Assembly (NCBI GenBank): GCA_026395965.1
Contig: JAPLXS010000012.1
Location: 36,116-100,115, forward strand
Length of the DNA: 64,000 nucleotides
Direction of reading: 5' to 3'
Origin: Candidatus Nomurabacteria bacterium
Lineage (GTDB): Bacteria > Patescibacteriota > Minisyncoccia > Phycocordibacterales > UBA9973
Positions 119 to 49,369 of this stretch are shown in pieces. A program made the translations under genes and the position numbers. The first letter of the stretch is position 1; the number at the start of each line of letters is the position of its first letter. The notes under the pieces are model-generated. The model was not told the DNA's origin. It saw only the letters and a program-made list of their open reading frames with translations, and ran no database searches.

Positions 119-146
119 CTATCTTTAAAAAAGAAAAAATCAAAAT

Positions 147-180
147 ACCTAGAAATATAAAATATTTCTAGGTATTTTTT
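147..180. terminator. Bidirectional rho-independent terminator hairpin (acctagaaata..tatttctaggt) plus T-run
   Basis: Perfect 11-bp inverted repeat followed by TTTTTT. Lies between convergent genes. Confidence 0.6.
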
Positions 181-200
181 AATTTCAGATGATTTGAAAA

Positions 201-1136
201 TTATTCAACGATTGCACTCATTTCATGATTGAATGCTTTTGAAGCTTGTACTATATATTGAGCTATATTCTTTTTGAAATATGGTTCATGTTGTTTTTGT
301 ATTTTAGATATTACATAGTATCCTATTGCCATCATGGTTACATAATCTGCGTTTTCTGGTAGTGGTATATAGAGTCTGTTTTGGGGATCACCATAGGTAT
401 CATTTTTATCACCAAAACTTATAAATAGTTCATTTGCAGGAACTACAGTTACTGCATGCTTCATATACTCTGTCGTCTCTACATCGTGAGCTATTATTCT
501 ACCAAATAATTCTATAAATTTAACTTGTAACATTCTAATTATTCCAGAAAATTTTGTAGGAACTATAAGAAAATATTTTTCATATTTTGAAAAAAATGTC
601 ATATCTATGGTATCAATATTTTTTTCTATAAAATTTTGAATATCAGATGTGTTTTCATGTGTTTTACCAAGAATCATCCCCATATAGGTAGATGTATTGT
701 ATGTATATGGTTCTCTATTTTTGGGAAATATAAATACATCTTTACTATCTACAAATTTTATCGCTTCTGCATCTTTGTTGTTTGTAATAAGTACTACACG
801 TTTTCCTAGCTCTTTTGCACGCTTTGCTATAATAGGTGCATGTTTTCCACCTGATGCAGAAATAACTATTACACTATCTATAGTTTTTATGTTTTCTAGT
901 TTTTGTTCATAGTTACTCTCAGAAGCAAATATTGCATCTTTTTCTTCAAATATAATCCTACCAGTAGCTTCTGCATTACCAGATCCTATAATCAGAGGAT
1001 GGTGGTATTCATCTAGATTTATTTTTGGTAATTCTTCTTTTTGGAAAAGTTCCAAAGCTCCTAAAACAACTATATCCAAATCAGGGATATTTTCTAGATC
1101 GAAACTTTTTAATATTTCTATATTTTTTGTATTCAT
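201..1136 (-). CDS. SIS-domain sugar-phosphate isomerase, possibly bifunctional phosphoglucose/phosphomannose isomerase-like
   Basis: SIS-like motif SASGGKHAPIIAKRAKELGKRVVLITNN. Its size and its position next to the Zwf-Gnd fusion fit a PGI-like role. The start was moved to the internal Met (MNTKNIEIL) at 1136 to avoid a 44-nt overlap; the track ORF extends to 1181. Confidence 0.5.
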   Translation of the reverse strand: MNTKNIEILKSFDLENIPDLDIVVLGALELFQKEELPKINLDEYHHPLIIGSGNAEATGRIIFEEKDAIFASESNYEQKLENIKTIDSVIVISASGGKHAPIIAKRAKELGKRVVLITNNKDAEAIKFVDSKDVFIFPKNREPYTYNTSTYMGMILGKTHENTSDIQNFIEKNIDTIDMTFFSKYEKYFLIVPTKFSGIIRMLQVKFIELFGRIIAHDVETTEYMKHAVTVVPANELFISFGDKNDTYGDPQNRLYIPLPENADYVTMMAIGYYVISKIQKQHEPYFKKNIAQYIVQASKAFNHEMSAIVE

Positions 1137-1137
1137 A

Positions 1138-3528
1138 TTATTTATTTTCTTTGTTATTAATATTTGAAATATGTCCTCCAAATTGGTGTCTCATAGCAGA
1201 AAGAACTCGTCCAGTAAATGATGGATTTTCTTTTGATTTTTTTCTAAACTCTAGTGACCCTTCAATGATGGGGACAGATACATTTAATTCTTTTGCTGCA
1301 TCTACTGTCCATTGTCCTTCTCCACTGTGCGCTACTACAGGTGAACAAGATTCTTCATCTTCTAGATTTTCACCAAATTTAGCAAATGCTTCAGACAACC
1401 ATCCAACTAGACTCGATGATACAACTGAACCATGGTTATATATATTGGTTATAGAAAGCATATTTAAAGAAAAAGGGGATTTCTTTAAAACTTCAAATCC
1501 TTCAGCTATAGATTGCATCATTCCGTATTCAATACCATTGTGTACCATTTTAACAAAATGACCTGCACCAGATTTACCCATATATCCATAGCCATCTTTT
1601 ACTGACATATCTCTAAACAGATTCTCGTATTTTTTATATAGCTCTGGTTCACCGCCTACCATAGTACAAGCTCCTTCTAGTGCTCCACCTGGCCCACCAG
1701 ATACACCAACGTCCAAAAAGTTGATTCCAACTTCTGATAGTTTAATTCCTCTTCGTATAGATTCCTTGTAGGGAGAATTTCCTCCGTCTATTATAGTATC
1801 TCCTTTTTCTAGTAGGGGAATAAGTGAGTCGATAACAGCATCTACTGCCTGATGAGGAACCATGAGCCATACACTACGAGGTACAGTGAGCTTGCTTACA
1901 AATTCATTGAGTGAGTATGCTCCTTGTATTCCCTCAGATTCGAGTTGTTTTGTGGCAGATTCTTCTTGATTGTATCCTATTACATTCCAATTTTTTGAAT
2001 GTAATAGTCTAGCAATATTGGCGCCCATTTTACCTAAACCAATGATTCCTATTTCTCCTGCAATTTCTTTTTTTAATTCATTTACTGTTTCTGTTTTTAT
2101 ATTCTTTGATTCTAGTAGTATATTTGGCTCGTATTCTTTTAAGGGAACAAGATTTTCTGCCCAACCTTTTAAGATAGGGTCAGTAAATTTCCATGAAGAT
2201 ATTACCTCATCAGAAGAAATAAATAGTGTTTGGTTTCCTTCCATTGCAGTATAAATAATTTTGGCATATTCTTCTATGTATTGAACTTTTGTTTCTTTTT
2301 CATAAAGGAAAAATGACAAAACACGTTCCTCTATAACTTGGTCGAAACCAGGTTTTTTTGTCCAGAAATTTATAGTGACTTCATCATTTGGTTCAAGTCT
2401 AAAAATTATTCTATTCGGAGTGTGTTTTCCATCTTCACACAAAAGACATACTTGTGGGTTTTTTAGAGTTAAAACTATTTCTTTTTGTGATTTTCCAGTA
2501 GATTTACCAGCTTCCATAAATATTGGAATACCTTTCCATCTAGGATGCAAAAGTTCTGTTTTAAGTAGGAAATATGTTTCAGTTGTAGAATTTGGATTTA
2601 CGCCCTTAACATTTTTGTAACCTTTATATTGTGATCTAAAAGTATTTTTACGTATAGATTCATCTGTCCAACTACTAAGTGCTTTCAAAATCAATGCTCT
2701 GTTTTCACGAACAGAAGAAACTCCCATTTCTATAGGATATTCAGAGGTTATAGCTGCAAGCATTGTCAAAATATGGTTTTGTCCAACATCACGAAGAGCT
2801 CCTACTGAGTCATAGAAGCTACCTCTGTCTTCTACTCCTATAGACTCTAACAGTCTTATATCTATTTTTTCTATCATGGTGTTGTCCCATGTGTTTTCAA
2901 AAAGATTATTTGAAAAACGAAAATTTTCTATTCCTTGAATTATTTCTTTAAAAAGATAGTGATCGATTCTATATATTTGTTCTTCTTTAAAATATAGAGA
3001 AAGAAGAGCTTGAAGTTTCTCAGCACTCGCAAGATCTGTGCCAAAGGGTTTTTCTATTAGTATACGGCTCCATCCTAAATCTCCTCCACATGGAATATTT
3101 AATTTTACAGAAGCAAGATTTTCAAAAATATTGGCATAAGCAGATGGCGGTACCGCTAGGTAGTAGAGTTTGTTTGCACAGATACTCCAATTGTTTTCTA
3201 TTTCTGTTATATGCTTAGAAAGGGAATTGTATGATTCTATGTCTTCAAATGTCCCAGCTTCATAAGAAAAAATTTTGAAAAATGACTCAAAATCTTTCTC
3301 ATCAATTTTCGTATCTATGTGTTTATCCAATGAACTAATGATCAAATGCCTTAATTCATCACTAGTAAGCTCTCTTCTTGAAAATCCTATAATTGCAAGG
3401 TGTGTAGGTAAACGATTATGAATAAAAAGATGCCAAAGAGATGGAATTATTTTTTTTGCTGCTAGGTCTCCAGTTATTCCAAAGATGGTAAATATTGAAG
3501 GTATATTGTTTATGGCTTTTTTATTCAT
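1138..3528 (-). CDS. zwf-gnd: Fusion protein: glucose-6-phosphate 1-dehydrogenase (N-terminal ~480 aa) fused to short-form 6-phosphogluconate dehydrogenase (C-terminal ~310 aa)
   Basis: The N-terminus FGITGDLAAKKIIPSLWHLF matches the G6PD NADP-binding signature. The C-terminal half has a GIIGLGKMGANIARLL Rossmann fold and GAGHFVKMVHNGIEYGMMQ, the 6PGDH signature. The 796-aa frame is continuous. Confidence 0.8.
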   Translation of the reverse strand: MNKKAINNIPSIFTIFGITGDLAAKKIIPSLWHLFIHNRLPTHLAIIGFSRRELTSDELRHLIISSLDKHIDTKIDEKDFESFFKIFSYEAGTFEDIESYNSLSKHITEIENNWSICANKLYYLAVPPSAYANIFENLASVKLNIPCGGDLGWSRILIEKPFGTDLASAEKLQALLSLYFKEEQIYRIDHYLFKEIIQGIENFRFSNNLFENTWDNTMIEKIDIRLLESIGVEDRGSFYDSVGALRDVGQNHILTMLAAITSEYPIEMGVSSVRENRALILKALSSWTDESIRKNTFRSQYKGYKNVKGVNPNSTTETYFLLKTELLHPRWKGIPIFMEAGKSTGKSQKEIVLTLKNPQVCLLCEDGKHTPNRIIFRLEPNDEVTINFWTKKPGFDQVIEERVLSFFLYEKETKVQYIEEYAKIIYTAMEGNQTLFISSDEVISSWKFTDPILKGWAENLVPLKEYEPNILLESKNIKTETVNELKKEIAGEIGIIGLGKMGANIARLLHSKNWNVIGYNQEESATKQLESEGIQGAYSLNEFVSKLTVPRSVWLMVPHQAVDAVIDSLIPLLEKGDTIIDGGNSPYKESIRRGIKLSEVGINFLDVGVSGGPGGALEGACTMVGGEPELYKKYENLFRDMSVKDGYGYMGKSGAGHFVKMVHNGIEYGMMQSIAEGFEVLKKSPFSLNMLSITNIYNHGSVVSSSLVGWLSEAFAKFGENLEDEESCSPVVAHSGEGQWTVDAAKELNVSVPIIEGSLEFRKKSKENPSFTGRVLSAMRHQFGGHISNINNKENK

Positions 3529-3775
3529 TTTTTATAATAAGTTATTTATAATGTTTAATAATTGTATCATTTGCACAAAATTCTACAAAAGAATTATATA
3601 CCATAAAGCATAACATCGATTTATGAACATTTGATGAATGTATTTTTACTTAAAATAGTAATTTTTAAAATTTTATGCTGATTTTTGGGTTTTATTAAAA
3701 GTAATTTGTAATATTTCGTTTATTTAATAAAGCTCCAATAGATGGAGCTTTTTATTTGTATAATTATTTTAATGT

Positions 3776-5583: not shown

Positions 5584-6168
5584 CTAAAACTTTTTAGAAC
5601 ACTCTTTAAGTATTGAAAGTTGTTTAAGTATTCCTTTTGTGTGCGTAAGAACAAAATTTCCAGCTTGATAGTCGTTTATACAATGCCAAGTAGAAATATA
5701 ACCTTCTCCAAATTTAGCTTTTCGAGATAGTCCGCTGTTCTCTGCTTCAAATTTTTGTTGATTTTTAAGCCAATATGAAGCTGATTTTGTGTGAATTCCA
5801 TAAATATCTCCAAGAAATACTTTTTTAGGAGTAACTTTTTCTCCTGTCTGTGTACGGTTGAAACCAAAAGGATTTCTGCCGGATTCTTCGAAATGTTTCT
5901 GTAATACCTTAAGTGCATGTATCGTCTGATTAAGTTGGCCATAATTTTTCTTTTCCAATTTCAGTATTATTTTACTGAAACCACTTTTGTCATGAAAAGG
6001 AGAAATGACTTTGAATAATCTAACGATAGCCTCGACCCTGTTTTTCATTTTTGAAATTTCTTCCATTTCTTTTTCTAGAAAAGAAAGATCATTTTGAATA
6101 AGATTAAGGTCGTTTGCTACAGGTTTGAAAATTGAATTAAATATTTTAAATATTTTACTTGCTTTCAT
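5584..6168 (-). CDS. Hypothetical protein
   Basis: Long ORF with a coiled-coil N-terminal half and no recognisable motif. Confidence 0.45.
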   Translation of the reverse strand: MKASKIFKIFNSIFKPVANDLNLIQNDLSFLEKEMEEISKMKNRVEAIVRLFKVISPFHDKSGFSKIILKLEKKNYGQLNQTIHALKVLQKHFEESGRNPFGFNRTQTGEKVTPKKVFLGDIYGIHTKSASYWLKNQQKFEAENSGLSRKAKFGEGYISTWHCINDYQAGNFVLTHTKGILKQLSILKECSKKF

Positions 6169-6362: not shown

Positions 6363-6722
6363 ATGAATAAAGAACTAACACCAGAAGAAAAGAGAGTAAT
6401 AATAGACAAGGGTACCGAGGCACCTTTTATAGGCGAGTACATAAACAATAAAGCGACGGGCGTGTATGTATGCAAGCAGTGCGGTAACCCTCTATACAAT
6501 TCCAAAGATAAATTTGAGTCAACTTGCGGATGGCCAAGTTTTGATAGTGAAATAGAAGGTGCTGTTTCTAGGAGTATAGATATAGATGGCGCGCGTACAG
6601 AGATAACTTGTGCCAAATGTGGAGGGCACCTAGGGCATGTATTTAAAGGCGAACATTTAACAGATAAAAATATACGACATTGTGTGAATTCCATATCAAT
6701 GAAGTTTATTGAAGGAAAATAA
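6363..6722 (+). CDS. msrB: Peptide methionine sulfoxide reductase MsrB
   Basis: SelR fold with CxxC..CxxC zinc motifs and a catalytic region [10 protein letters not shown]. Confidence 0.9.
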
Positions 6723-6724
6723 TT

Positions 6725-7210
6725 ATGACAAAGAAAATAGTATTGGCAGGTGGATGTTTTTGGGGGCTACAAGAACTCATAAGAACTCAAGAGGGTGTAG
6801 TAGAAACACGAGTGGGATACACTGGTGGTGAAGTAGAGAATCCTACATATGAAAATCACAAAGGCCACGCAGAAGCAGTAGAGATATCTTATGATGACTC
6901 CAAAACCTCATATAAGAAATTATTAGACTTTTTCTTTCAAATACACAATCCGACTACACTAAACCAGCAAGGTAACGACAAAGGCACTTCATATCGATCA
7001 GCTATATTTTATGGTAGTGAGATAGAGTTAAAAGAAGCCAAAGATTTTATTGATATTGTAAATATGTCTAAGCGATGGGGTAATCCTGTAGTCACTACAT
7101 TAGAACCCTTAGGAGTATTTTATCCTGCCGAAGATTATCATCAAGATTATTTACAAAAGAATCCGGGTGGATACACTTGCCACGCTATATACTTTGATAG
7201 CTATTTATAG
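6725..7210 (+). CDS. msrA: Peptide methionine sulfoxide reductase MsrA
   Basis: GCFWG active-site motif near the N-terminus. It follows msrB with a 2-nt gap, forming an operon. Confidence 0.9.
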
Positions 7211-7254
7211 ATAAAAATGGCAAAAATAATTTATAATTAATTTGAAATAAAAAA

Positions 7255-8043
7255 ATGGAAAAAAATTTAATGCCACTTTTGTTTATCGGTCACGGAAGTC
7301 CAATGAATGCAATAGAAGACAATGAATTTACTAAAAACTTTGTTCGAGTAGCAAAAGAGATTGAAAGACCTAAAGCTATTGTATGTATTTCAGCTCATTG
7401 GTTTACAAATGGAACAAAAGTTACAGCTATGGAAAAACCGAAAACAATTCATGATTTTTTTGGTTTTCCGCAAGAACTTTACCATATAGATTATCCCGCA
7501 AACGGAGACATAGAACTTGCAAATGAGATAAAAAATCTATTTTCTCCTGTGAGTGTAGAGCTAAACAATGATTGGGGATTGGATCATGGTACATGGTCAA
7601 TTTTGAGACATATGTATCCAGATGCAGATATCCCTGTAGTACAGATTAGTATAGATTACAATGAGCATACACAGTATCATTTTGATTTATCCAAAAAGTT
7701 ATCTTCTTTGAGGTCAAAAGGTATTCTTATTATCGGTAGTGGAAATATTGTTCACAATTTGGGTAAAATAGATTTCAAAAATATCGAAACCAGCGACTAT
7801 GGGTATGATTGGGCAAAAAGTGCACAAAATAATGTGGATGCCAGTATAGTGAGTGGAGATTTCAATTTTTTAATTGATTACAAAAAAGATGGCAATGATC
7901 TAAACATGGCAATCCCAACACCAGAACATTTTTTACCCCTTATTTATATTTTAGGATTAAAAGAAGAAAATGAAAAAATTGAATTTTTTAATAATGTTTT
8001 AGTTGGTGGTTCTATAAGTATGACTTCATTAAAAATTTCATAA
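7255..8043 (+). CDS. Class III extradiol ring-cleavage dioxygenase (LigB/YgiD family, 4,5-DOPA dioxygenase-like)
   Basis: N-terminal LFIGHGSPMNA..ISAHW motif typical of the YgiD/LigB family; ~260 aa. Confidence 0.7.
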   Translation: MEKNLMPLLFIGHGSPMNAIEDNEFTKNFVRVAKEIERPKAIVCISAHWFTNGTKVTAMEKPKTIHDFFGFPQELYHIDYPANGDIELANEIKNLFSPVSVELNNDWGLDHGTWSILRHMYPDADIPVVQISIDYNEHTQYHFDLSKKLSSLRSKGILIIGSGNIVHNLGKIDFKNIETSDYGYDWAKSAQNNVDASIVSGDFNFLIDYKKDGNDLNMAIPTPEHFLPLIYILGLKEENEKIEFFNNVLVGGSISMTSLKIS

Positions 8044-8118
8044 TATAATACCAATATTAAAATACAAATAAAAAAGGCTTATCATAAATGATAAGCCTTT
8101 AAATGTTTTATGGATAAA

Positions 8119-8523
8119 TTATTTAAACTCAATCAGTAAACCTTTTTTAAATTCATAAAAAAGAGATAGAACAAGATTAAAAAATACACCACATAGTAAA
8201 CCAAAATAAATACCGCTAAGGAAATCAACTTTGTAAATAAAGAATGAAATAACACCAATAGGGATACCCATAATTAATCCAACGATAAGACCATTGGTGA
8301 GACCATTGACTGTCGAGAATACAAGACCTCCTTTATTAAATCTTTTTAACCTTCTTTTTACGCTTATTGCTAGGCATATATCTAGATTGATTAAAATATA
8401 TGAAGCAATAGGTACCCACATCAATTCTAGGTTTTCAAACGTGGTTTTTCCTGGACTGAGTCCTAGTATCTCCTTAAAGGAGGGTAATAGGTAGTCTGTG
8501 CACATCCAGTAAGTGAGCCACAT
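8119..8523 (-). CDS. Small multi-pass membrane protein, paralog of 9288..9764
   Basis: Hydrophobic. The shared N-terminal motif YLLPSFKEILGLSP matches YLLPGFNEILKLKP in 9288..9764. Confidence 0.5.
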   Translation of the reverse strand: MWLTYWMCTDYLLPSFKEILGLSPGKTTFENLELMWVPIASYILINLDICLAISVKRRLKRFNKGGLVFSTVNGLTNGLIVGLIMGIPIGVISFFIYKVDFLSGIYFGLLCGVFFNLVLSLFYEFKKGLLIEFK

Positions 8524-8730
8524 AGCAGCGATAAAAAATATTAATGTTACAATACTTCTTCTTTTTGAAATTGCTACATTGGTAGTAGCTGAAAATTTTT
8601 TTTTTTTTTTTTATTTATTTAAATAAGTTTGTTTAAAGACATAATACATTAAATATTATTAATGTCAATTATATATGAATTAACCACAATAGTTATTTTA
8701 ATATTCACAAAGGTAAATTAAACAAAAGAA

Positions 8731-8751
8731 AGGCCTACAATATGTAGGCCT
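8731..8751. terminator. Hairpin aggcctacaatatgtaggcct, terminator-like
   Basis: Perfect 8-bp GC-containing stem downstream of the minus gene 8792..9052. Confidence 0.45.
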
Positions 8752-8791
8752 AATGGATTTTATTTTTTAATCATAAATTAAGTTAAAAAAT

Positions 8792-9052
8792 TTATTTTAT
8801 TGTTGCCATGCTGGTTAAAAAATAAGCAGCAGTGTAAACAATAGATAAAATTAAAATTGTTTTGACTGTAAATCGTTTTTCTCTTTCTATGTAGAAAATT
8901 ACAAATACTCCTAAAATAAGCGGCACCCAATCAAAGATTTTGAATAGTATAGAGTAGTGACTTTGTGCAAATCCTGGAACATTTTTTAATACTGTAAAGA
9001 TACCAGAAGTAGCAATAAGAAAAAAACCGACTAGAGATAATAAATTTTTCAT
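8792..9052 (-). CDS. Small membrane protein
   Basis: Hydrophobic ORF. The start was chosen at the internal Met (MKNLLSLVG); the track ORF extends to 9109. Confidence 0.4.
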   Translation of the reverse strand: MKNLLSLVGFFLIATSGIFTVLKNVPGFAQSHYSILFKIFDWVPLILGVFVIFYIEREKRFTVKTILILSIVYTAAYFLTSMATIK

Positions 9053-9287
9053 TTTTTGTTTGATTTTAAAATTAATAATATTTATTAGAATTTCTCTATT
9101 CCTCTGCAATAGGGGAACAAAGAAATTCCAATAAATATTTCTAAAATCAAAATATCAAAGAACTAAATAACTGAAAAATAGTATCTCATAATTAAGTAAA
9201 TTTGTCAAGTTATAAAAAGGGTAGGAATTTACTTGCTATACAAATAAAAAAGCTCATCATTTCGATGAGCTTTTGTTGGGTTTGTGA

Positions 9288-9764
9288 TCATTTTCTTTTT
9301 AACAATATATATATGAGCAAAATACTAGCAGCGCATACTTGAGCACATATAAATACTAGACAAAGCAATAAACCATATATTAGACCCAATATGAAACTAA
9401 ATTGACCAAAAAGAAAACAATTAAAGACAACAATCAGAATAATAATTATATTAATATATAGATTCACAATAAATAATTTATATTTAAAAGAATTAATAAA
9501 ATCATATTCTTTATGTTTTTTTAAATTATTTTCTAGTATTTTAATTGTTAAAAATGCATACCATATAATTAAAATATAGGTTGTAATTGGCGTCAATATC
9601 AACCAGACTTGATTAATATTAATGGATTCAGGTTTTAATTTAAGTATTTCATTAAACCCAGGCAATAAATACCCGATGTATAAGTAGTAAGTAAATATAC
9701 TTGTTACCAAAGTATTTATTAACCATAATTGTTTTTTAGTAATTTTTCCGATTTTATTTTCCAT
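9288..9764 (-). CDS. Small multi-pass membrane protein, paralog of 8119..8523
   Basis: Shares an N-terminal motif with 8119..8523 and has several TM helices. A terminator hairpin (aaaaagctcatcatttcgatgagctttt) sits at 9250-9277. Confidence 0.5.
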   Translation of the reverse strand: MENKIGKITKKQLWLINTLVTSIFTYYLYIGYLLPGFNEILKLKPESININQVWLILTPITTYILIIWYAFLTIKILENNLKKHKEYDFINSFKYKLFIVNLYINIIIILIVVFNCFLFGQFSFILGLIYGLLLCLVFICAQVCAASILLIYILLKRK

Positions 9765-9943
9765 TCTTCAGTTATTTAATTGTTATATTTCAAAGTATTT
9801 TTTTTCATACTAACATGAAAAGTACAGCATGTAAATGGTTAGTGGCATGCGCATACACTATAGCAATTCATTGACAAATTGTAAAAATATGCTATTATAA
9901 AAATAAATAAATTGCTCATCGTCATTAATTAAAACTTGAAAAA

Positions 9944-11737
9944 ATGAAAAAAAGACAGATTGCTTTCTCGGTTATGTTCACATTGGTTTGGTATTTCTTA
10001 AGTGAATACCTATTTATGCCCGCTATCTCATTTGATTCCACTACTGGAATTTATTGGAACTTAATTGTTTATCTTACTGTGATGGCTATTATCTTTTTCA
10101 ATATTGATTCTAACAAAAAATCTGATTTTGGAAAGGCATTATGTATCGTATTAGGGATCTCTGCTATTATTTTACTGCTTGGTCTTGGTATTGGTGGATT
10201 CTTTTCCACTTCTACATGGATGAATACTGAAAAGTATAGAGGAATGATTGGTAACATTAAAGAAACTGAATTTACGGCAAATGTTCAACCAATCGCTGTA
10301 AATCAAATGCTAATTGTTGATGAAGAAATTGCGAAAAGAGTTGGAGAAAAAGTTTTAGGATCAGATCCTGGACTTGGAAGCCGCTCAGAAATTGGCGATT
10401 ATACTCTTCAAGCTGTTAATGGTCAGCTCTATTGGATTGCTCCTTTACTCCACAGTGGATTTTGGAAATGGAATTCTTTTGGAGACGAAGGTACTCCAGG
10501 TTATGTACGTGTTTCAGCAACAAATCAAGAAGACTATGCTTTGGTGACAAATGTAAAAGGAAAAAAATTACATATTGTATATCAGCCAGAAGCATATTTT
10601 AGTCAGGATTTAGAGAGACATATCTACACAAACGGGTACCGTTCTATTTTATTCAGCGACTTCACTTTTGAAGTTGATGATAATTGGAATCCTTATTGGA
10701 CTGTAACTGTTCAAAAAACAAAAATTGGTTTTAGTGGAAATGATGCTGTTGGTGTGCTTGTCGTGGATCCTCAGACGGGGGATGTGCGTCAGTATAAAAC
10801 AGAAGAAGCTCCTGCCTGGATCGATCGTATTCAGCCAAAAGATTTTGTTTCTGAACAAGTAGATGACTGGGGAAATTATATTCACGGTTATTGGAATTGG
10901 TCAGGAAAAGATAAAATCAGAGTAGCTGAAGAAAGTTCACTTGTTCTTGGTAATGACGGAAGATCATATTTTTATTTTGGTCTTACTTCAGAAGGAAAAG
11001 ATGAATCAACAGTGGGTTTTGTTATGGTAGATACCAGAACAAAAAAAGCTCATTGGTTTAAACAAGCAGGAGCTACAGAAAAAGCAGCTAGGGTCTCAGC
11101 TGAGGGCAAGGTACAAGAAAAAGGTTTTGTAGGTTCTGATGGTGTGACATACAATATTGATGGTCACCCTACTTATGAATTCCTTTTAAAAGACAAAGGT
11201 GGCTTGATGAAACTTGTAGCCTTGGTAAATGTCCACGATCACACTCTTGTAGGTATTGGTGAAAATCGCCAACAAGCCATAAGAGATTACCGTAATCAAA
11301 TGACTAGTCGTGGAAACACGGTATCGTTAGTTACTAGCGATATGGAATCAACTGTTCTTGTTTCAAAAATTTTAAGGATTGCATCTTTGATTAGCAAAGG
11401 GGAAACTTATTATCAATTTATTTTGGTAAAAGAACCCAAAACTATCTTTACTGCAGGCACTGAAATTTCAGATGAACTTTCTTTAACAAAAGAAGGGGAT
11501 GTTATTAAGATTTATTATGTAAAGCTTAATTCTGAATCAAGTGTGTCTATATCAAAATTTGATAATATCGAATTAATGATAGGCAGTGACTCTATTCAAA
11601 TTAAAAATGAAGAGAGATTAGATACAATTAAAGCAAAAGTAATTCAACAAAAATCAGAAGAAGTTGTTGATAACAAAATCAACAATCTTTCATCTGTTGA
11701 GAAGAAAAAACTTTTGAAATTAATTAAACAAAAGTAA
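9944..11737 (+). CDS. Large membrane-anchored hypothetical protein (3 N-terminal TM helices plus ~500-aa extracytoplasmic region, Lys-rich C-terminus)
   Basis: 597-aa ORF that looks locally more GC-rich than its surroundings (by eye). No known catalytic motif was recognised. Confidence 0.55.
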   Translation: MKKRQIAFSVMFTLVWYFLSEYLFMPAISFDSTTGIYWNLIVYLTVMAIIFFNIDSNKKSDFGKALCIVLGISAIILLLGLGIGGFFSTSTWMNTEKYRGMIGNIKETEFTANVQPIAVNQMLIVDEEIAKRVGEKVLGSDPGLGSRSEIGDYTLQAVNGQLYWIAPLLHSGFWKWNSFGDEGTPGYVRVSATNQEDYALVTNVKGKKLHIVYQPEAYFSQDLERHIYTNGYRSILFSDFTFEVDDNWNPYWTVTVQKTKIGFSGNDAVGVLVVDPQTGDVRQYKTEEAPAWIDRIQPKDFVSEQVDDWGNYIHGYWNWSGKDKIRVAEESSLVLGNDGRSYFYFGLTSEGKDESTVGFVMVDTRTKKAHWFKQAGATEKAARVSAEGKVQEKGFVGSDGVTYNIDGHPTYEFLLKDKGGLMKLVALVNVHDHTLVGIGENRQQAIRDYRNQMTSRGNTVSLVTSDMESTVLVSKILRIASLISKGETYYQFILVKEPKTIFTAGTEISDELSLTKEGDVIKIYYVKLNSESSVSISKFDNIELMIGSDSIQIKNEERLDTIKAKVIQQKSEEVVDNKINNLSSVEKKKLLKLIKQK

Positions 11738-13041: not shown

Positions 13042-13668
13042 ATGAAAACTATTTTAATCATCTTAGTTGTTTTAATACTATGGTCTATCTGGGGGTATTT
13101 TGGTTCGCGTGTGGAGCAATCAGATTACACGGTTATCGAAAAAAAGAAAGATTATGAAATTCGTAATTATCCAGCACATATTGTAGCAGAAACAGCAATT
13201 TTGAGTTCTACATATAGCAATGCCATGAATTCAGGTTTTTCAATTGTGGCAGGATATATTTTTGGCGGAAATACAAAAAAAGAAAAAATCGCTATGACAG
13301 CACCAGTAGTAGAAAAATCTGGTTCTTCAGAGAAAATCTCTATGACAGCCCCAGTAATAGTGAATACAGAAGGAGATACACATGTAATTTCTTTTGGAAT
13401 GCCTCGCTCTTACTCTTCTATAGAGACCTTACCAATTCCAAATGACTCTCGAGTAAAGCTTCGCGAAGTATCTGCGCAAAAGATGGCTGTACTTCGCTTC
13501 TCATGGTCTAGATCAGAAAGTAGGGTAAAAAAAATGAAAGAAAAACTTTTAAATTATCTTATTCGTGACAAAGTAGAAATTATTAGTACTCCTAGCTATG
13601 CCGGCTACAACGCTCCTTGGACACCACCTTGGATGGTTAGGAATGAAATTTTGGTTGAAATAAAATAA
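13042..13668 (+). CDS. SOUL/HBP family heme-binding protein with N-terminal TM anchor
   Basis: C-terminal YNAPWTPPWMVRNEILVE is typical of the SOUL family (YNPPW..RRNEV). The N-terminus is hydrophobic. Confidence 0.7.
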   Translation: MKTILIILVVLILWSIWGYFGSRVEQSDYTVIEKKKDYEIRNYPAHIVAETAILSSTYSNAMNSGFSIVAGYIFGGNTKKEKIAMTAPVVEKSGSSEKISMTAPVIVNTEGDTHVISFGMPRSYSSIETLPIPNDSRVKLREVSAQKMAVLRFSWSRSESRVKKMKEKLLNYLIRDKVEIISTPSYAGYNAPWTPPWMVRNEILVEIK

Positions 13669-14398: not shown

Positions 14399-15163
14399 AT
14401 GAATTTATCTTTAAATAAAAATTTGGGTAATAAATATTCAAATCAATCGCAAAAAATAAGAGTTATTACTGAAAATTGGGTTCTAAATCAAATATATTGT
14501 CCAAGTTGTGGTGGTATTATAACTAACTATGTAAACAATAAACCTGTTGCAGATTTTTATTGTAAAAAGTGTGTTGAAGATTTTGAATTAAAATCAAAGA
14601 AAGGAAAAATAGGAAAAACTGTACCTGCTGGAGCGTATTCTAAAATGATTGAAAGGATAAATTCCTCGACAAAACCAAATTTCTTTTTTATGGGTTACTT
14701 GGGGACTTTGTGTGTAAATAATTTTTTTGTAATACCAAAACACTTTTTTATTTCAGAAATTATAGAAAAAAGAAAGCCACTTAGTAATAACGCAAGAAGG
14801 GCAGGTTGGGTTGGTTCAAATATTATTTTTTCAAAAATACCAAAAGCAGGGCAAATTTTTTATATTGAAAATGGTAAAGAGATTTCTAAAGAAGAGGTTT
14901 TAGAGAAATGGCAAAAAACAGTCTTTTTAAAGAAAATTAAAAGAGTAGATGCTAAAGGTTGGATTTTAGATATTATGAATTGCATTGATGCTTTAAATAA
15001 AAATGAGTTTACGTTAGTAGATATATATAAGTTTGAATCTGAATTAAAAAACATTCACCCAGAAAATAAGCATATCAAAGATAAAATCCGTCAGCAATTA
15101 CAATTTTTACGAGATAAAAATTATATTGATTTTGTTGGTTCTGGTAAGTATAAATTGAAGTAG
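14399..15163 (+). CDS. dpnI-like: DpnI-family (Dam-replacing family) methylation-dependent type IIM restriction endonuclease, PD-(D/E)XK catalytic domain plus C-terminal winged-helix
   Basis: 254 aa, the same length as S. pneumoniae DpnI, and collinear with it from memory: YSNQSQKIRVITENWV, YCPSCGG, PVADFYCKKCVEDFELKSKKG (D..E-x-K), NPNFFFMGY, RKPLSNNARRAGWVGSNI, IKDKIRQQLQFLRDKNYIDFVGSGKYKL. Confidence 0.85.
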   Translation: MNLSLNKNLGNKYSNQSQKIRVITENWVLNQIYCPSCGGIITNYVNNKPVADFYCKKCVEDFELKSKKGKIGKTVPAGAYSKMIERINSSTKPNFFFMGYLGTLCVNNFFVIPKHFFISEIIEKRKPLSNNARRAGWVGSNIIFSKIPKAGQIFYIENGKEISKEEVLEKWQKTVFLKKIKRVDAKGWILDIMNCIDALNKNEFTLVDIYKFESELKNIHPENKHIKDKIRQQLQFLRDKNYIDFVGSGKYKLK

Positions 15164-16197: not shown

Positions 16198-16884
16198 TTA
16201 ATTAACAGGGATAGTTTCAAACATATTATCAAAACTTGAAACCTTCAATGTATTAACTATTTCTTCTGAAGCTTTAACTAGATCTTTCATTATCTGGAAA
16301 GACAAATCTGTTACCTCAATTAATTTACCATGATCAAAAGAATATGTATTTTCATTATATACTATTGGTAAACTAGCTTTTTTTTGCTTATCACAATAAT
16401 AACCATTATTATGAACAAGATTTCTTAAATGTCTTCCAAGATCAAAAACTGAAGAAAGATGTTTGGTTTCTATTTCTTTAAAAAGACATTCGTAAATGTT
16501 TTTAAAGTCGCCGAGCCCGTCATTACATGCACCTGGCTTTACATGTAATAGAATATTTCTAAGTGACCATTCAAGCCGTGAATAGAATATTAGATAGTAG
16601 CCCTTATACATACATACCTCAAATTCTCTCTTAAATTTAGTTATATCTTCTGGAGTTAACAGTTTCTTTTCCTCCCAAAAATCCACTTCTTTAAATTTGG
16701 TTTGAGCCAATTCAATAGCAACAGCATATGAATGTAATACATTGGATAGTTGACCAAAAATTGTCACCCTTAGATCATTCTTATCATCTTTCATTGAAGG
16801 ATATTTCTTTAGATTATCCTCATATAATTTAAAAGATAGTTCAACAGCCTGAGTAAAATTTGTGATATTGCTTGCATTTAACAT
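16198..16884 (-). CDS. Hypothetical protein with two R-x(4-6)-H motifs (possible HEPN-like / Abi-like)
   Basis: RNILLH (R-x4-H) and RHLRNLVH (R-x6-H) in a helical 228-aa protein. The assignment is tentative. Confidence 0.4.
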   Translation of the reverse strand: MLNASNITNFTQAVELSFKLYEDNLKKYPSMKDDKNDLRVTIFGQLSNVLHSYAVAIELAQTKFKEVDFWEEKKLLTPEDITKFKREFEVCMYKGYYLIFYSRLEWSLRNILLHVKPGACNDGLGDFKNIYECLFKEIETKHLSSVFDLGRHLRNLVHNNGYYCDKQKKASLPIVYNENTYSFDHGKLIEVTDLSFQIMKDLVKASEEIVNTLKVSSFDNMFETIPVN

Positions 16885-25909: not shown

Positions 25910-26794
25910 TTAGTTAGTACTTGTAGTGTTTGTATTGTCGACCGCATTAGAAATTGTATTTTCATCTACATTTGGTACTTTAGCGAGTATTTTTGCTAGA
26001 TCTTTTACGGTTGTATGCGCTGATTTAACTTTAACATTTAAACTTTTCATATCAGTATTAAATAAATCACGGAGTTTTTTCATTTCTGCTTTTAGTGTAA
26101 CCTCATCATTTATTGTAGTTGATATTGTATATTGTTTTGATATTTGAATTTTTATAGCATTTTCTGCTGATAGTATTGCATTGTCTACCTCAGCTTGTTT
26201 TGCTGATAATGTAGATATATCTATTATCTTATTTTCAGCTTTAGAAATACGAGACTTAATACTAATCAAAACATTTTTTATTTTATTCAATTTTTCTGTA
26301 AGTTGGTTTGTTCTATTTAAATTTAATTCATTTAAATTATTTACAATTTTTTCTGCAGAAGCTTTTTTCTTTTCATCCTTAATTTTAGAAATATTTTCTT
26401 TGAAAGCTGTTTTCATTTCTGCTGTTTTCAATTTTATTTCCTCCTTATTATTTTCTATTTGTTTCTTGAATTCATTTCGTGTATTTTTTATCTGCTGTAA
26501 TTCTTGTTCCATTTTAACCCTGTATTCTGCATTTTTTGCCTTTTGTTCTACTCTTAAATTTTTTAGTACATTTTCTCTTTTTGGCTTTTCAGGACCTTTT
26601 TCTATCTCTCCTGGGCATTTTGCAAATTCACAATTTGGACCTGTACGGCCAACACCAGAACCATCTGGACATATTTTGGCTTCTGCTGTACAAGCTATTG
26701 CAGGTTCTATATCTTCAGCATGAGCTACAAAAGCAGCAAAGACTGACATAAGTATAATAAAAGAAGAAACACTATATTTTATATTTTTTTTCAT
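25910..26794 (-). CDS. Secreted coiled-coil protein with N-terminal Cys-rich module
   Basis: Signal peptide, CTAEAKICPDGSGVGRTGPNCEFAKCPGE, then ~200 aa of heptad-like K/E-rich sequence. Confidence 0.5.
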   Translation of the reverse strand: MKKNIKYSVSSFIILMSVFAAFVAHAEDIEPAIACTAEAKICPDGSGVGRTGPNCEFAKCPGEIEKGPEKPKRENVLKNLRVEQKAKNAEYRVKMEQELQQIKNTRNEFKKQIENNKEEIKLKTAEMKTAFKENISKIKDEKKKASAEKIVNNLNELNLNRTNQLTEKLNKIKNVLISIKSRISKAENKIIDISTLSAKQAEVDNAILSAENAIKIQISKQYTISTTINDEVTLKAEMKKLRDLFNTDMKSLNVKVKSAHTTVKDLAKILAKVPNVDENTISNAVDNTNTTSTN

Positions 26795-27959: not shown

Positions 27960-28757
27960 TTATCCAATATGAGTTATATTTTTATGTTTTTCAGCCTCTA
28001 GTGCTATTTTTTCCATTATAGATACTGCTTCTATTGGGTATTTACCTTTTGCAGACTCTTCTGAGAGCATTACACCGTCGGCTCCATCTAGTATTGCATA
28101 AGCAACATCTGAGACTTCTGCTCTTGTAGGTTTTGGATTTTCTACCATAGACAAAAGCATTTGAGTAGCAACTATAACCATTTTACCAGATTTTTTACAT
28201 TCTTGAATTATTTTATGTTGTATAAATGGTATTTCTTCAAGTGGAAATTCATTGCCTAGATCTCCTCTTGCTACCATTATGGCATCTGTACATTCTAAAA
28301 TTTCAGAAAGATTTTGGACTGCTAATTTTCTTTCTATTTTTGCTATAACTTTTTGGTTGCCACCTCTTTCTTTTATTAATTCTTTTAATTTGATTATATC
28401 AGATGCAGTTCCAACAAAAGACAAGGCAATATAATCTACACCTTGCTCAATTCCGAAAGTTAAATCAGATATATCTTTTTCTGTTATTACTTCTTGGTCT
28501 TTTTCTCCTCCAAAGTGATGTTCAGATCCTTCTTGTACTCTTGGACCAGATAAATCCTGTATTATTGGGATGTATTTGTTGTATTCATTTTTTGATATTT
28601 CACGAATATTTTTAATGAGTTCTGTGTGCCATTCGTGTGTGCCCCATGAGAAATTTAAACGGACTATATCCATACGGTGTGAAATAAGAGCAGAAATTAT
28701 TTCTCTACTATTACTTGCTGGACCTATCGTAGCTACTATTTTTGTTGCTGATTCCAT
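27960..28757 (-). CDS. pyk: Miniature pyruvate kinase: catalytic A-domain barrel only, with the B (lid) and C (regulatory) domains absent
   Basis: [84 protein letters not shown] are all PK signatures, yet the protein is only 266 aa. Start set at MESATK (28757) with an AAGGA SD-like element 8 nt upstream. Confidence 0.7.
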
Positions 28758-29018
28758 AAATATATCCTTAATTATTAGTACTTTTTTAGTATACAATAAA
28801 AAAATTATGTTTTCAATATTTGTATTTTATAATTAAGAAATAATAATTTAAAAACACCCACAAATGGGTGTTTTTAAATTATTATTTCTTTGGTGTAACT
28901 TTTTTTGGTTTCTTTACTTCCTTACGAGCACCTGTACCTTTTGCCATATATTTAAAAATTTAATTTATTAATAATGCATTTATTGTACCACTAATAATCT
29001 ATTTTAAAAAATACGAAA

Positions 29019-45395: not shown

Positions 45396-46388
45396 ATGAA
45401 TAACATAGATTTTTTAGCCATTGGAGATATTGCTACTGAGCCTTTTATAAAGATTAAAGATGCTGAGGCCAATTGTGACCCCGATGGTAATAACTGTAAA
45501 CTATGCCTCAATTATGGTGGCAAAATCCCTTATGAATCAGCTACTGTATGTCATGCAGTAGGAAATAGTTCAAATGTAGCAATTGGTGCAAGTAGATTAG
45601 GGCTTAATTCATGTTTAATTTCATATATAGGTAATGATTATTCTGGAAAGAAAAATATAGAACAACTTAATTCTGAAAAAGTTAATACTGACTATATAAG
45701 TACCACTGATGGACTTGAATCAAACTATCATTATGTTCTTTGGTATGGATCTGAGCACACTATACTCGTTAAACATACAGAGTTCCCGTATTCATTTCCA
45801 AAAGACTTACCTGAACCAAAATGGATTTATTTGTCTTCGTTAGCCGAAAATTCTGTCTCTTATCATAGAGAGATAAGCCAATACCTTGATAGTCACCCAG
45901 AAGTATTTTTGGCATTTTCCCCTGGAACATTACAGATTAAATTGGGAATAGAAATATTGAAAAATATATATAAAAATACAAATGTATTTTTGTGTAATCG
46001 TAGCGAGGCACAGACTCTTTTGAAAATAAATGAAAATGATATTCCAAAATTATTAATTAAAATGCATGAACTTGGTCCAAAGATTGTAGTTATTACAGAT
46101 GGTATCAATGGTTCATATTCATATGACGGCACTGATATACTTTTTATGAAAGCTTTTCCAGATGAAAATTTTGTAGAGAGTACTGGAGCTGGAGATTCTT
46201 TTTCTGGTGCTTTTGTTGTTGCATTATTTTTAGAAAAAGATATACCCACTGCTCTTATGTGGGGTGCTGCAAATGCTAAATCAGTTGTTAAACATGTTGG
46301 ACCTCATAAGGGTTTACTCAGTAGAGATGAGATAGCAGAATATCTAAAAAATGCTCCAAAAGAGTATACTCCAGTTAAAATAAATTAG
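45396..46388 (+). CDS. PfkB-family carbohydrate kinase (ribokinase-like fold)
   Basis: C-terminal TGAGDSFSGAFVVAL is the PfkB signature 2. Confidence 0.75.
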   Translation: MNNIDFLAIGDIATEPFIKIKDAEANCDPDGNNCKLCLNYGGKIPYESATVCHAVGNSSNVAIGASRLGLNSCLISYIGNDYSGKKNIEQLNSEKVNTDYISTTDGLESNYHYVLWYGSEHTILVKHTEFPYSFPKDLPEPKWIYLSSLAENSVSYHREISQYLDSHPEVFLAFSPGTLQIKLGIEILKNIYKNTNVFLCNRSEAQTLLKINENDIPKLLIKMHELGPKIVVITDGINGSYSYDGTDILFMKAFPDENFVESTGAGDSFSGAFVVALFLEKDIPTALMWGAANAKSVVKHVGPHKGLLSRDEIAEYLKNAPKEYTPVKIN

Positions 46389-47383
46389 ATTTTTCTTTTT
46401 AATATTTTTTCAACTTTTTCTATAATATGAGATGTGTCTATTTCATAATATTTTTCAAGTTCTAGTGGTGTACCTGATTGACCAAATACATCTTTTACTC
46501 CTACAAGCTCAATAGGTACTGGATAGTTTTGAGCTAGACACTCTGCTACAGCACTCCCCATACCACCAGTTATTTGATGGTCTTCTACTGTTACTATTGC
46601 TTTAGTTTCTTTTGCTAAAGATATTATTGATTCAGTATCTAATGGTTTTATTGTGGATAGATTTAAAACTTTTACTTTTATCCCCTTTTTTTCTAATTCA
46701 TGTGCTGCAATAATAGCATTATATAAAATAGGACCTGTGGCTATTATTCCTACATGTGCTAAACCAATTTCAGGAACAAAATATAAATGCGCTTTACCTA
46801 TTTCAAAAGGAGTTTCTTCTGTTGTGATTGTCGGTGTATTGTTTCGAGCTAAGCGAATATATGTAGGATTTTTTGTATTGGAACACGCAATTGTTGCTTT
46901 CTTTGCTTCTATAGAGTCACATGGAGAAATAACAACCATGTTTGGTATTACACGTGTTATTGCAATATCTTCTAATGCCTGATGAGATCCCCCGTCAGGT
47001 CCTACAGATAATCCTGCATGTGAGCCTACTATTTTTACAGGTTGGTTATTGTAGCAAATACTTGTGCGTATTTGTTCCCAGTTTCTTCCTGGGCTAAACA
47101 TTGCATATGAAGTTATAAAAGGTATTTTGCCCATGGCAGCTATTCCACTTGCAACTGTTGCGAGATTTTGTTCAGCGACTCCAACTTCTATATATCTTTT
47201 TGGGTATCTTTCTGCAAAAAGATTAGCTTTTGTAGATTCAGAAAGATCTGCACTTAATACTACAATGTTTTCATTGTCGTATCCTGCTTGTAAAAGTCCA
47301 CTACCAAAACCATCACGAGAGGAAATCTTTTCTACATCATCGTTAAATATTTTTGTATTTATTTTTATAGATTGATTAAGCAT
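46385..47383 (-). CDS. tktB-half: Transketolase, C-terminal subunit (pyrimidine-binding plus C-terminal domains)
   Basis: Split transketolase arrangement, 4-nt overlap with the N-terminal subunit gene. Confidence 0.85.
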   Translation of the reverse strand: MLNQSIKINTKIFNDDVEKISSRDGFGSGLLQAGYDNENIVVLSADLSESTKANLFAERYPKRYIEVGVAEQNLATVASGIAAMGKIPFITSYAMFSPGRNWEQIRTSICYNNQPVKIVGSHAGLSVGPDGGSHQALEDIAITRVIPNMVVISPCDSIEAKKATIACSNTKNPTYIRLARNNTPTITTEETPFEIGKAHLYFVPEIGLAHVGIIATGPILYNAIIAAHELEKKGIKVKVLNLSTIKPLDTESIISLAKETKAIVTVEDHQITGGMGSAVAECLAQNYPVPIELVGVKDVFGQSGTPLELEKYYEIDTSHIIEKVEKILKRKI

Positions 47384-48215: not shown

Positions 48216-48238
48216 CTATATTTATTTTAACAAAATAA

Positions 48239-48925: not shown

Positions 48926-48928
48926 ATA

Positions 48929-49369
48929 TTAATTTGATTCTAATTTATTAATTCTTCTAACGTGACGTTCCTCATTTTTGAACTCTGTTTCAAGAAAAAG
49001 CTTAACAGCTTCTTTTGCTTCTTCTTCTTTTATAAACCTAGCCCCGAGTGAAAGAATATTTGCATCGTTGTGCTCTCTACCAAGTTTTACTATTTCTATA
49101 TTACCACCATAGTATTCTATTGCACGAATACCCTCTACTTTATTTGCAGAAATTTGTTCCCCTTCTCCACTACCACCGAGAACTATGCCTAGAGAATTTA
49201 CATCTAAAGCAACAGCTTCTGCAACTGGTTTTATAAAATCAGGATAATCGTCATTGTTGTCTAGTGAAAAAGCTCCTTTATCTTCTATTTCATATCCGAG
49301 TTCTTTTATAATTATTTTAAGTTTTTCTTTTAATTCGTAACCAGCATGGTCACTTCCTATGTATATCAT
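48929..49369 (-). CDS. rpiB: Ribose-5-phosphate isomerase B
   Basis: MIYIGSDHAGYELKEKL. Confidence 0.85.
   Translation of the reverse strand: MIYIGSDHAGYELKEKLKIIIKELGYEIEDKGAFSLDNNDDYPDFIKPVAEAVALDVNSLGIVLGGSGEGEQISANKVEGIRAIEYYGGNIEIVKLGREHNDANILSLGARFIKEEEAKEAVKLFLETEFKNEERHVRRINKLESN

Follow-up and report, generated by a model that had tools for sequence, protein, structure and literature searches.

A fused glucose-6-phosphate and 6-phosphogluconate dehydrogenase in Candidatus Nomurabacteria and its double-SIS partner gene

[quoted passage not shown] Is this frame genuine, do both halves look like working enzymes, and what could a cell gain by joining two steps that do not follow one another? 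Altogether our results support a reading to which we assign a probability of roughly 85%: the protein would be a genuine bifunctional enzyme of Patescibacteria (of the Nomurabacteria type), belonging to a widespread Zwf-Gnd family that arose by stop-codon loss, with independent modules that benefit from being expressed together.

One uninterrupted frame for two dehydrogenases

The zwf::gnd fusion ORF occupies positions 1138..3528 of the minus strand, an orientation that the preliminary description left unstated. In the ORF listing it begins with ATG and runs as a single unbroken frame of 796 aa followed by a stop codon; at ~32% GC, an open frame of 2.4 kb far exceeds chance expectation. Pfam resolves the chain into G6PD_N (PF00479; aa 15-198, E 2e-54, 185 bits), G6PD_C (PF02781; aa 203-467, E 2e-70, 238 bits), NAD_binding_2 (aa 492-642, E 1e-39) and 6PGD (aa 656-766, E 9e-22). 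These domains, together with two NCBIfam models that both score above cut-off (see below), bear out the initial claim of a true single polypeptide of Zwf and short-form Gnd, and all three motifs quoted in its favor are present in the translation: FGITGDLAAKK at aa 16-26, GIIGLGKMGANIARLL at aa 494-509 and GAGHFVKMVHNGIEYGMMQ at aa 654-672. The absence of a lactonase from the chain likewise stands, as the Pfam scan returned neither PF01182 (no match at E <= 0.01) nor PF10282. The same scan detected PF01182 in our positive control P0258, a bacterial G6PD-6PGL protein found among the search matches. Judged by the presence of PF01182 in the same chain, the fusion falls outside the G6PD-6PGL bifunctional class (GluPho / H6PD type).

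Could a sequencing or assembly frameshift, or a lost stop, have merged two separate genes? Other CPR genomes have unfused zwf>gnd neighbors and one locus, L010, is a single stop codon away from the fused state, so a one-base error could in principle make a fusion. Against this, the identical protein is encoded by the independent Logan assembly SRR20698642; all 120 listed homologs (57-82% identity, from NCBI, JGI, ENA and Logan) are one ORF of ~790-800 aa with the junction in frame; and 14 of the best 80 GTDB loci are fused. These three observations rule out the frameshift that had been a concern from the outset. An artefact is already effectively refuted, and we give it next to no weight.

Two conserved modules on a variable linker

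The G6PD (Zwf) module (aa 1-468; 2125..3528, minus strand) scores 441.9 bits against TIGR00871 zwf (cut-off 400.6; aa 11-467, model positions 3-463 of 486) and, by this curated cut-off and by PF00479 and PF02781, is a member of the G6PD family. It aligns lengthwise with the solved enzymes 9emm, 1qki and 1dpg. Its motifs are invariant or nearly so among the 120 homologs: the dinucleotide fingerprint G17ITGDL22 (G17xxGDLxxKK26), E159KPFG163, the substrate motif R187IDHYLFKE195, in which F replaces the G of RIDHYLGKE as it does in 117 of the 120 family members, and Q250-N251-H252 (RDVGQNH), with H252 at the position of the catalytic His. In characterized G6PDs the 2'-phosphate of NADP+ is bound by an Arg (E. 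coli R50, L. mesenteroides R46) and at the K18 equivalent (PMC4807051). The fusion has R51 at this 2'-phosphate site, kept in 118/120 sequences, and T19 aligns with the E. coli K18 position, like T14 of the dual-specificity L. mesenteroides enzyme. These residues suggest that the N-terminal module converts glucose-6-phosphate and NADP+ to 6-phosphoglucono-delta-lactone.

The short-chain 6PGDH (Gnd) module (aa 492-796; 1138..2055, minus strand) reaches 357.6 bits with TIGR00872 gnd_rel (cut-off 297.2; aa 493-789, model positions 3-296 of 299) and falls far under the cut-offs of the long-form models TIGR00873 and NF006765. Since it passes the curated cut-off, is ~300 aa long and has only one C-terminal hemi-domain, it is a short-chain 6PGDH. 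Its best PDB matches are all of this kind (4e21, 6vpb, 10gw/6xeq, 8ihe), and it matches end to end (E 1e-55 to 1e-63) the enzymes of G. oxydans (6XEQ/10GW), G. diazotrophicus (6VPB) and G. metallireducens (4E21) and M. tuberculosis Gnd2 (8IHE/9IJB). These tetrameric short-chain enzymes share with it the single hemi-domain and the RX2FGXH tail, but they are free-standing whereas the Gnd half is fused. The module carries the dinucleotide fingerprint G494xxGLGKMG502, and the catalytic Lys, Asn and Glu of GHFVKMVHNGIEYG (K660, N664 and E667) are each found in 120/120 homologs. In the substrate-binding DGGNS585 the Asn is likewise universal and S585 is present in 114/120; in the C-terminal tail R780-H-Q-F-G-G-H786 the R, F and first G are kept in all 120, the second G in 118 and the H in 119. 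The RX2FGXH tail sits 10 residues from the C-terminus of the fusion. In short-chain tetrameric 6PGDHs it is a free C-terminal tail that completes the active site of the neighboring subunit (PMC12871650), and because of this arrangement Gnd must be the C-terminal partner, provided that the fusion assembles in the same way. [quoted passage not shown]

For fused paralog-like Rossmann enzymes in general, one can imagine that one half is catalytically dead and acts only as a scaffold or regulator. Nothing specific favors such a role in this case, and it is opposed by the (near-)invariance, across 120 homologs, of all catalytic and substrate-binding motifs in both halves and by the fact that both exceed equivalog cut-offs; we regard it as very improbable.

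The pathway was initially described as having two NADPH-producing steps in one protein. For the Zwf half this fits the retained R51/T19 site. For the Gnd half NADPH is unproven: the cofactor triad at the end of beta-2 is N520-Q521-E522. Two NADPH are not secure for the present copy because N-Q-E replaces the NADP-type N-(R/K)-(S/T), which occurs in 85/120 family members; NQE occurs in only 3/120. The present copy thus departs from the N-R-(S/T) triad of NADP+-specific 6PGDHs, and the Arg is likewise missing from its closest relatives (P0002-P0004). In the T. maritima 6PGDH, N32/R33/T34 make three hydrogen bonds to the 2'-phosphate, and replacing the triad reverses specificity ~6e4-fold (PMC5090862). 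The name of the TIGR00872 model, too, says NAD(+)-dependent. A Gnd module that has come to prefer NAD+ or to accept both cofactors, so that each G6P yields one NADPH and one NADH, is therefore a serious candidate. However, the present copy keeps the Asn at a position occupied by Asp in the closest solved short-chain enzymes, and Gln could still donate a hydrogen bond. We place this shift somewhat short of even odds, and the second step may accordingly be written as yielding NADH or as having relaxed specificity.

The modules are joined by a linker (~aa 469-491; 2056..2124, minus strand) that, in column statistics over the 120 homologs, is variable in sequence and has small indels that are always in frame. 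The AlphaFold (AF2) monomer model (mean pLDDT 87.5, pTM 0.59) consists of two confident modules tethered by a disordered stretch (pLDDT < 50 at residues 478-489), with no confident inter-module packing, which suggests two independently folding units on a flexible linker of ~20 residues. This bears on the idea, raised in the preliminary description, that the fusion permits channeling: the tether would hold the labile delta-lactone and 6PG by the Gnd site, or the complex would speed lactone hydrolysis, and a separate lactonase would be dispensable. In line with this idea, no lactonase adjoins the fusion in the window or at four distant fused loci (L002-L005), and fusions of G6PD with PPP enzymes have arisen independently and repeatedly (PMC3148214). 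Yet we consider channeling unlikely, because another step separates the two activities and because the modules of the monomer model are independent and joined by a disordered linker. It is further disfavored by the lack of conservation in the linker, by the interconversion of fused and unfused states inside the clade, and by a canonical PF01182 lactonase at the related unfused locus L088. The modeled fold favors co-expression and co-assembly instead: since the modules appear to fold independently on a flexible linker, the benefit of fusion would most likely lie in an enforced 1:1 ratio of the two enzymes, expressed and assembled together, in a minimal genome. Hydrolysis of the lactone would then take place away from the protein, spontaneously or with the help of an unlinked lactonase.

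A known family derived from adjacent genes

How far does this architecture extend? Our homolog set comprises at least 120 representatives of 90% identity clusters, with 57-82% identity and full coverage. At 90% identity the fused architecture is found in >120 clusters and at 50% identity in ~15, the latter aligning in a single stretch over residues ~7-787. One uninterrupted ORF in independent genomes defines a patescibacterial Zwf-Gnd fusion family to which the present protein belongs. Full-length homologs occur in Nomura-, Magasanik-, Levy-, Uhr-, Roizman-, Wolfe- and Liptonbacteria and in Paceibacterota, and the fusion is also found in a few high-GC Actinomycetota MAGs. Long "fusion" ORFs at three other loci (L055, L065 and L080) proved to be spurious frames in high-GC DNA, in which only the G6PD part aligns in frame.

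The best 80 GTDB loci comprise, besides the 14 that are fused, 24 with adjacent zwf>gnd, 31 with adjacent gnd>zwf, 10 with gnd only and one with the genes on opposite strands. In a neighbor-joining tree, drawn without support values, every fusion belongs to a single clade of CPR-type zwf>gnd sequences, where fused and unfused forms are interleaved. The parcubacterial locus L010 differs from a fusion only by a single in-frame TAG, which lies in the linker. In the unfused zwf>gnd operons of other Patescibacteria, Bacillales and Mycobacterium, gene order and Gnd type (short-chain) match those of the fusion, but the enzymes are encoded by two ORFs, which abut or are separated by no more than a few codons. 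The fusion derives from this widespread arrangement of neighboring zwf->gnd genes, and we envision that the family originated through loss of the stop codon that separated zwf from short-chain gnd. In the distant lineages at L002-L005 the immediate neighborhood of the fusion is not conserved. A loose thiol-redox theme (Grx, Trx, Pyr_redox_2, MsrA, AhpC) recurs near fusions and is suggestive only.

Fusions of G6PD with the lactonase are well established: Plasmodium GluPho, the G6PD-6PGL of Giardia and Trichomonas, and metazoan H6PD. They likewise join G6PD to another oxidative-PPP enzyme, but their partner is the lactonase (PF01182), which catalyzes the consecutive step, whereas the window fusion has no such domain. 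In the diatom Phaeodactylum tricornutum, Stover et al. 2011 (PMC3148214) described a G6PD::6PGD fusion that, like the window fusion, joins steps one and three in one frame and skips the lactonase. That fusion is eukaryotic, was known from a single species as of 2011 and rests on a disputed gene model (PMC3148214); it is presumably an event independent of the bacterial one. Fused G6pd-Pgd was also mentioned in passing, in 60 candidate-phyla assemblies and one DPANN (Diapherotrites) archaeon, in a 2024 mSystems paper entitled Fusion/fission protein family identification in Archaea (PMC11237513). There, too, one polypeptide holds both domains, and the window protein belongs to that bacterial set. 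That paper lists the fusion only, whereas residues, linker, origin, cofactor and operon partner are considered here. Some homologs carry the JGI/IMG label [quoted passage not shown].

With these clusters and loci, JGI/IMG names and papers in hand, the architecture is both common in Patescibacteria and already annotated, so the preliminary description of it as unusual does not hold. The Zwf-Gnd fusion is genuine but already known, an ordinary member of a known family, and in itself adds little. Our literature search found no biochemical study of a G6PD-6PGDH fusion occurring naturally in bacteria.

A double-SIS partner and the wider pathway

The fusion gene is co-transcribed with a downstream partner gene (201..1136, minus strand; 311 aa), whose ATG lies 2 nt past the TAA of the fusion. 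Directly after the partner, a terminator-like hairpin of 17 bp with a T-run behind it (142..178, minus strand) is likely the 3' end of the operon. At the other end, an AT-rich intergenic region of 247 nt (3529..3775, minus strand) lies upstream of the fusion ATG, after a hairpin behind a pilin gene, and is the presumed promoter region; a promoter scan there gave consensus matches at no more than shuffled-sequence frequency.

The partner belongs to a highly conserved, Pfam-less orphan family, and a test of its three-dimensional fold identified it as a double-SIS phosphosugar-isomerase fold. By curated models (PF01380, PF00342, NCBIfam) it is not a SIS/PGI member: PF01380 gives 17.1 bits where 25 are required, the NCBIfam scan of the partner returned only sub-threshold HxlB and GlmS matches, and NCBIfam scans of 56 members of the partner family gave no SIS match above threshold, only weaker ones. 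A profile search against PDB sequences yielded nothing significant (best E 0.42).

One candidate role, that of the missing 6-phosphogluconolactonase, was rejected: the fold is that of a double-SIS isomerase, not of a NagB/DevB or beta-propeller lactonase, and at L088 the partner co-occurs with a canonical PF01182 lactonase. The partner is probably a hexose-6-phosphate isomerase, which would supply G6P from F6P. Elsewhere in the 64-kb window, no lactonase or PGI was found in the ~46 ORFs scanned. The window does hold non-oxidative PPP genes at 46385..49369 (minus strand) that can use the product of the fusion: a split transketolase (C part 46385-47383, N part 47376-48215), ribulose-phosphate 3-epimerase (48239-48925) and RpiB (48929-49369). 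We picture ribulose-5-P being taken up by Rpe, RpiB and this transketolase.

These genes raise a broader scheme, which we put forward as tentative and, taken as a whole, rather doubtful. The fusion and its double-SIS partner could form a two-gene module leading from F6P/G6P to ribulose-5-P without a dedicated lactonase, in which the partner represents an unrecognized family of hexose-6-phosphate isomerases, a non-orthologous replacement of PGI in Patescibacteria, and the Gnd half of this lineage has drifted from NADP+ so that the module gives NADPH and NADH.

The family provides a natural case of fusion between non-consecutive enzymes, with a rationale for domain order built in through the free C-terminal tail of Gnd. 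The present protein and P0001 are 100% identical, and the NCBI name of P0001 reads [quoted passage not shown]; because NCBI names only the G6PD for it and for several homologs, others being called "hypothetical protein", name-based pathway reconstructions would miss the 6PGDH. The tightly linked double-SIS protein, in turn, is a good candidate for a missing sugar-phosphate isomerase in the central metabolism of CPR bacteria.

An intact-looking Zwf-Gnd enzyme

The 796-amino-acid ORF at 1138..3528, which begins with ATG and which we assign to the minus strand, encodes four Pfam domains in a single polypeptide: G6PD_N (amino acids 15-198), G6PD_C (203-467), NAD_binding_2 (492-642) and 6PGD (656-766). 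In an NCBIfam scan, the protein exceeds the equivalog cut-offs for zwf (TIGR00871, 441.9 bits against 400.6, amino acids 11-467) and short-form gnd (TIGR00872, gnd_rel, 357.6 against 297.2, amino acids 493-789) and lies far under those of the long-form gnd models; neither scan detects a lactonase domain. These data confirm the fusion proposed in the preliminary description, and each motif quoted there is present in the translation. The description had also raised the concern of a frameshift in the linker. An identical protein is encoded by an independently assembled Logan contig (run SRR20698642), and 120 representatives listed by a search across 5.8 billion clustered proteins, drawn from NCBI, JGI, ENA and Logan, show 57-100% identity at 97-100% coverage. 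All 120 have the same four domains and nearly all are 770-830 amino acids long, the exceptions being 856 and 876. When they are aligned with MAFFT, the junction (amino acids ~469-491) varies in sequence and carries small indels, in frame throughout. The identical protein, the homologs and the junction together rule out a frameshift or assembly artefact, and the fusion is real.

Both halves of this bifunctional enzyme look catalytically intact. The G6PD half aligns with 9emm, human 1qki and Leuconostoc mesenteroides 1dpg, and retains G17xxGDLxxKK, E159KPFG163, RIDHYLFKE (187-195) and the catalytic His252 in RDVGQNH, motifs that are invariant or nearly so among the 120 sequences. R51 matches the residue that contributes most to 2'-phosphate binding, R50 in the Escherichia coli enzyme and R46 in that of L. 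mesenteroides; T19 occupies the position of K18 and T14, respectively (PMC4807051). These correspondences make NADP+ use by this half plausible; dual cofactor specificity is possible. The structures nearest to the Gnd half are the short-chain 6PGDHs 4e21, 6vpb, 10gw/6xeq and 8ihe, and it keeps GxxGLGKMG, DGGNS, K660/N664/E667 and a C-terminal R780xxFGGH786. In short-chain 6PGDH tetramers this RX2FGXH tail enters the active site of the neighbouring subunit (PMC12871650), and a requirement that it stay free would account for Gnd always being the C-terminal module.

The cofactor triad of the Gnd half is atypical. An NADP-type N-(R/K)-(S/T) triad is found in 85 of the 120 family members, with Asn at a position where the closest free-standing short-chain structures have Asp. 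In the family alignment the window protein instead has N520-Q521-E522 (1963..1971, minus strand), a variant present in 3 of the 120 sequences, and its nearest relatives carry NQE or NQS. That the non-consensus triad is common only to these relatives suggests that the Gnd half has lost its NADP+ specificity in this lineage. We consider it possible, at somewhat under even odds, that the second step prefers NAD+ or accepts both cofactors. Accordingly, the earlier view that both steps produce NADPH is plausible for G6PD and insecure for Gnd.

An AlphaFold2 model built from a 72-sequence alignment has a mean pLDDT of 87.5 and a pTM of 0.59, with residues 478-489 below a pLDDT of 50, and predicts that the two modules fold separately and are connected by a flexible linker. 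Channeling and genome streamlining had both been offered as explanations for the fusion. The two reactions are non-consecutive, the linker sequence is not conserved, and fused forms interconvert with unfused ones; we therefore favor a model in which a streamlined genome benefits from expressing and assembling both activities in fixed proportion, rather than from substrate channeling. Hydrolysis of the lactone intermediate would be either spontaneous or catalysed by a lactonase encoded elsewhere; no lactonase is present among the ~46 ORFs scanned in the 64-kb window.

Distribution and origin of the fusion

The architecture had been described as unusual. Several homologs are already named [quoted passage not shown] in JGI/IMG, and a G6PD::6PGD fusion has been on record for the diatom Phaeodactylum since 2011 (PMC3148214). 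These annotations and reports, together with the 120 homologs, argue against that description: the window protein belongs to a widespread, already recorded Patescibacterial family and is not novel. Our literature search found no biochemical characterisation of a natural bacterial G6PD-6PGDH fusion. Source names of the listed homologs extend across Patescibacteria/CPR (Nomura-, Magasanik-, Levy-, Uhr-, Roizman-, Wolfe- and Liptonbacteria and Paceibacterota), and one NCBI entry from "Candidatus Nomurabacteria" is 100% identical. About 15 full-length fused clusters (P0121-P0133, P0148) of 730-808 amino acids emerged from an exhaustive HMMER search across 1.84 billion representatives clustered at 50% identity; each aligns in a single stretch over residues ~7-787, and unfused G6PDs of ~470 amino acids rank below them. 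Other fusion architectures among the hits of this search include PGI plus short 6PGDH (P0197, 735 amino acids), G6PD plus 6PGL (P0258, 768), a lactonase remnant plus G6PD (P0226, 652) and G6PD with an unassigned C-terminal extension of ~420 amino acids (P0139, 868 in total).

A GTDB scan of one genome per species gave at least 593 loci, and we sorted the best 80 by ORF structure. True single-ORF fusions account for 14 of these. Separate, adjacent genes occur in the order zwf>gnd at 24 loci (other CPR lineages, Bacillales, Mycobacterium) and in the order gnd>zwf at 31 (Chloroflexota, Chlorobi, Nitrosomonas and others); a further 10 contain gnd alone, and at one locus the genes lie on opposite strands. 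In a neighbor-joining tree of the concatenated halves, which lacks bootstrap and is indicative only, all fusions fall within one CPR-type zwf>gnd clade, intermixed with unfused forms. The Parcubacteria pair L010 lies among the fusions and is unfused solely by an in-frame TAG in the linker (L010 4948..4950, …ASVIV*RRTMQKTIGIIGLGKMG); recent fission, sequencing error and read-through are all possible explanations. The tree and this single stop codon indicate that the fusion derives from an adjacent zwf>gnd pair; it is gained, and probably lost again, through one-nucleotide changes. Fused loci also occur in MAGs of 64-69% GC labelled Coriobacteriia, Slackia and Actinomycetes (L011, L012, L014; match ~8001..10350), where the gene has the GC content of its flanks and is thus native to the contigs. 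These actinobacterial fusions nest inside the CPR-type clade, suggesting transfer out of Patescibacteria and pointing to occasional horizontal transfer of the fusion. The zwf-gnd genes of MAGs titled "uncultured Gammaproteobacteria bacterium" (L009, L018, L019, L036) also lie inside the CPR clade of this tree, and these binned assemblies may have been assigned to the wrong taxon.

Metabolic neighbourhood

Ribulose-5-phosphate has a downstream route in the window, since Rpe, RpiB, a split transketolase, class II FBP aldolase, a PfkB kinase and GAPDH adjoin one another at 44.5-51.1 kb. The transketolase consists of two overlapping ORFs (46385..48215, minus strand), a TPP-binding N part of 279 amino acids and a pyrimidine-binding plus C-terminal part of 332. 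In relatives, the fusion is often close to glutaredoxin, thioredoxin, a Pyr_redox_2 disulfide reductase, AhpC or MsrA, and in the window an msrB-msrA pair, with a LigB-type extradiol dioxygenase-like gene after it, lies ~3 kb away (6363..8043, plus strand). This context suggests that a main role of the fusion may be to supply reductant for thiol-based oxidative-stress defence. In loci L005 and L087, MsrA/MsrB are again encoded close to the fusion or to its partner gene.

Other features of the window include a "mini" pyruvate kinase of ~265-278 amino acids (27960..28796, minus strand) with a canonical N-terminus and barrel domain, a much shortened B-domain region and no C-terminal domain; no ORF fragment in its flanks suggests a frameshift. 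A full-length DpnI-type (methyl-directed) restriction endonuclease with a C-terminal HTH domain lies at 14399..15163 (plus strand). The ORFs at 13042..13668 (plus) and 5584..6168, 16198..16884 and 25910..26794 (all minus) comprise a SOUL haem-binding-domain protein, unexpected in a CPR genome, and three of 194-294 amino acids with no Pfam match. GC content is lowest (25%) at 8001..10000, which contains a gap at 8523-9288 free of ORFs of at least 110 amino acids.

A conserved partner gene

The ATG of a 311-amino-acid partner gene (201..1136, minus strand) lies 2 nt after the TAA of the fusion, and a 17-bp hairpin with a T-run follows it (178..142, minus strand); the two genes form an operon. 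Although it belongs to no Pfam or NCBIfam family, the partner has 2,546 homologs, the best 120 clusters being 61-86% identical at 94-100% coverage. Cross-comparison of the two cluster tables matched 23 of the 120 fusion clusters to a partner cluster whose longest contig has exactly the same length, and adjoining locus tags also link the genes (for example COV04_02345/02350 and COW99_06265/06260). Locus L006 also has the partner after the fused gene, and the Saccharibacteria locus L034 has it after an unfused zwf>gnd pair. Its AlphaFold2 model (pLDDT 92.6, pTM 0.92) has a predicted double-SIS fold. Elsewhere the partner shows translational coupling to other genes of sugar metabolism: with a ROK kinase in L087, where GH15/GH57/GT5 genes lie upstream, and with a transaldolase in L088. 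The partner could have been the missing lactonase; the predicted double-SIS fold and the canonical PF01182 lactonase also carried by L088 lead us to reject this. From the fold and the coupling to sugar metabolism, we favor a model in which the partner would act as a hexose-6-phosphate aldose/ketose isomerase, an analogue of PGI. The PGI-Gnd fusion P0197 is consistent with such a linkage. The remaining interest of this fusion family lies in its biochemistry, in the atypical cofactor triad of the window copy and, above all, in the conserved orphan double-SIS partner.
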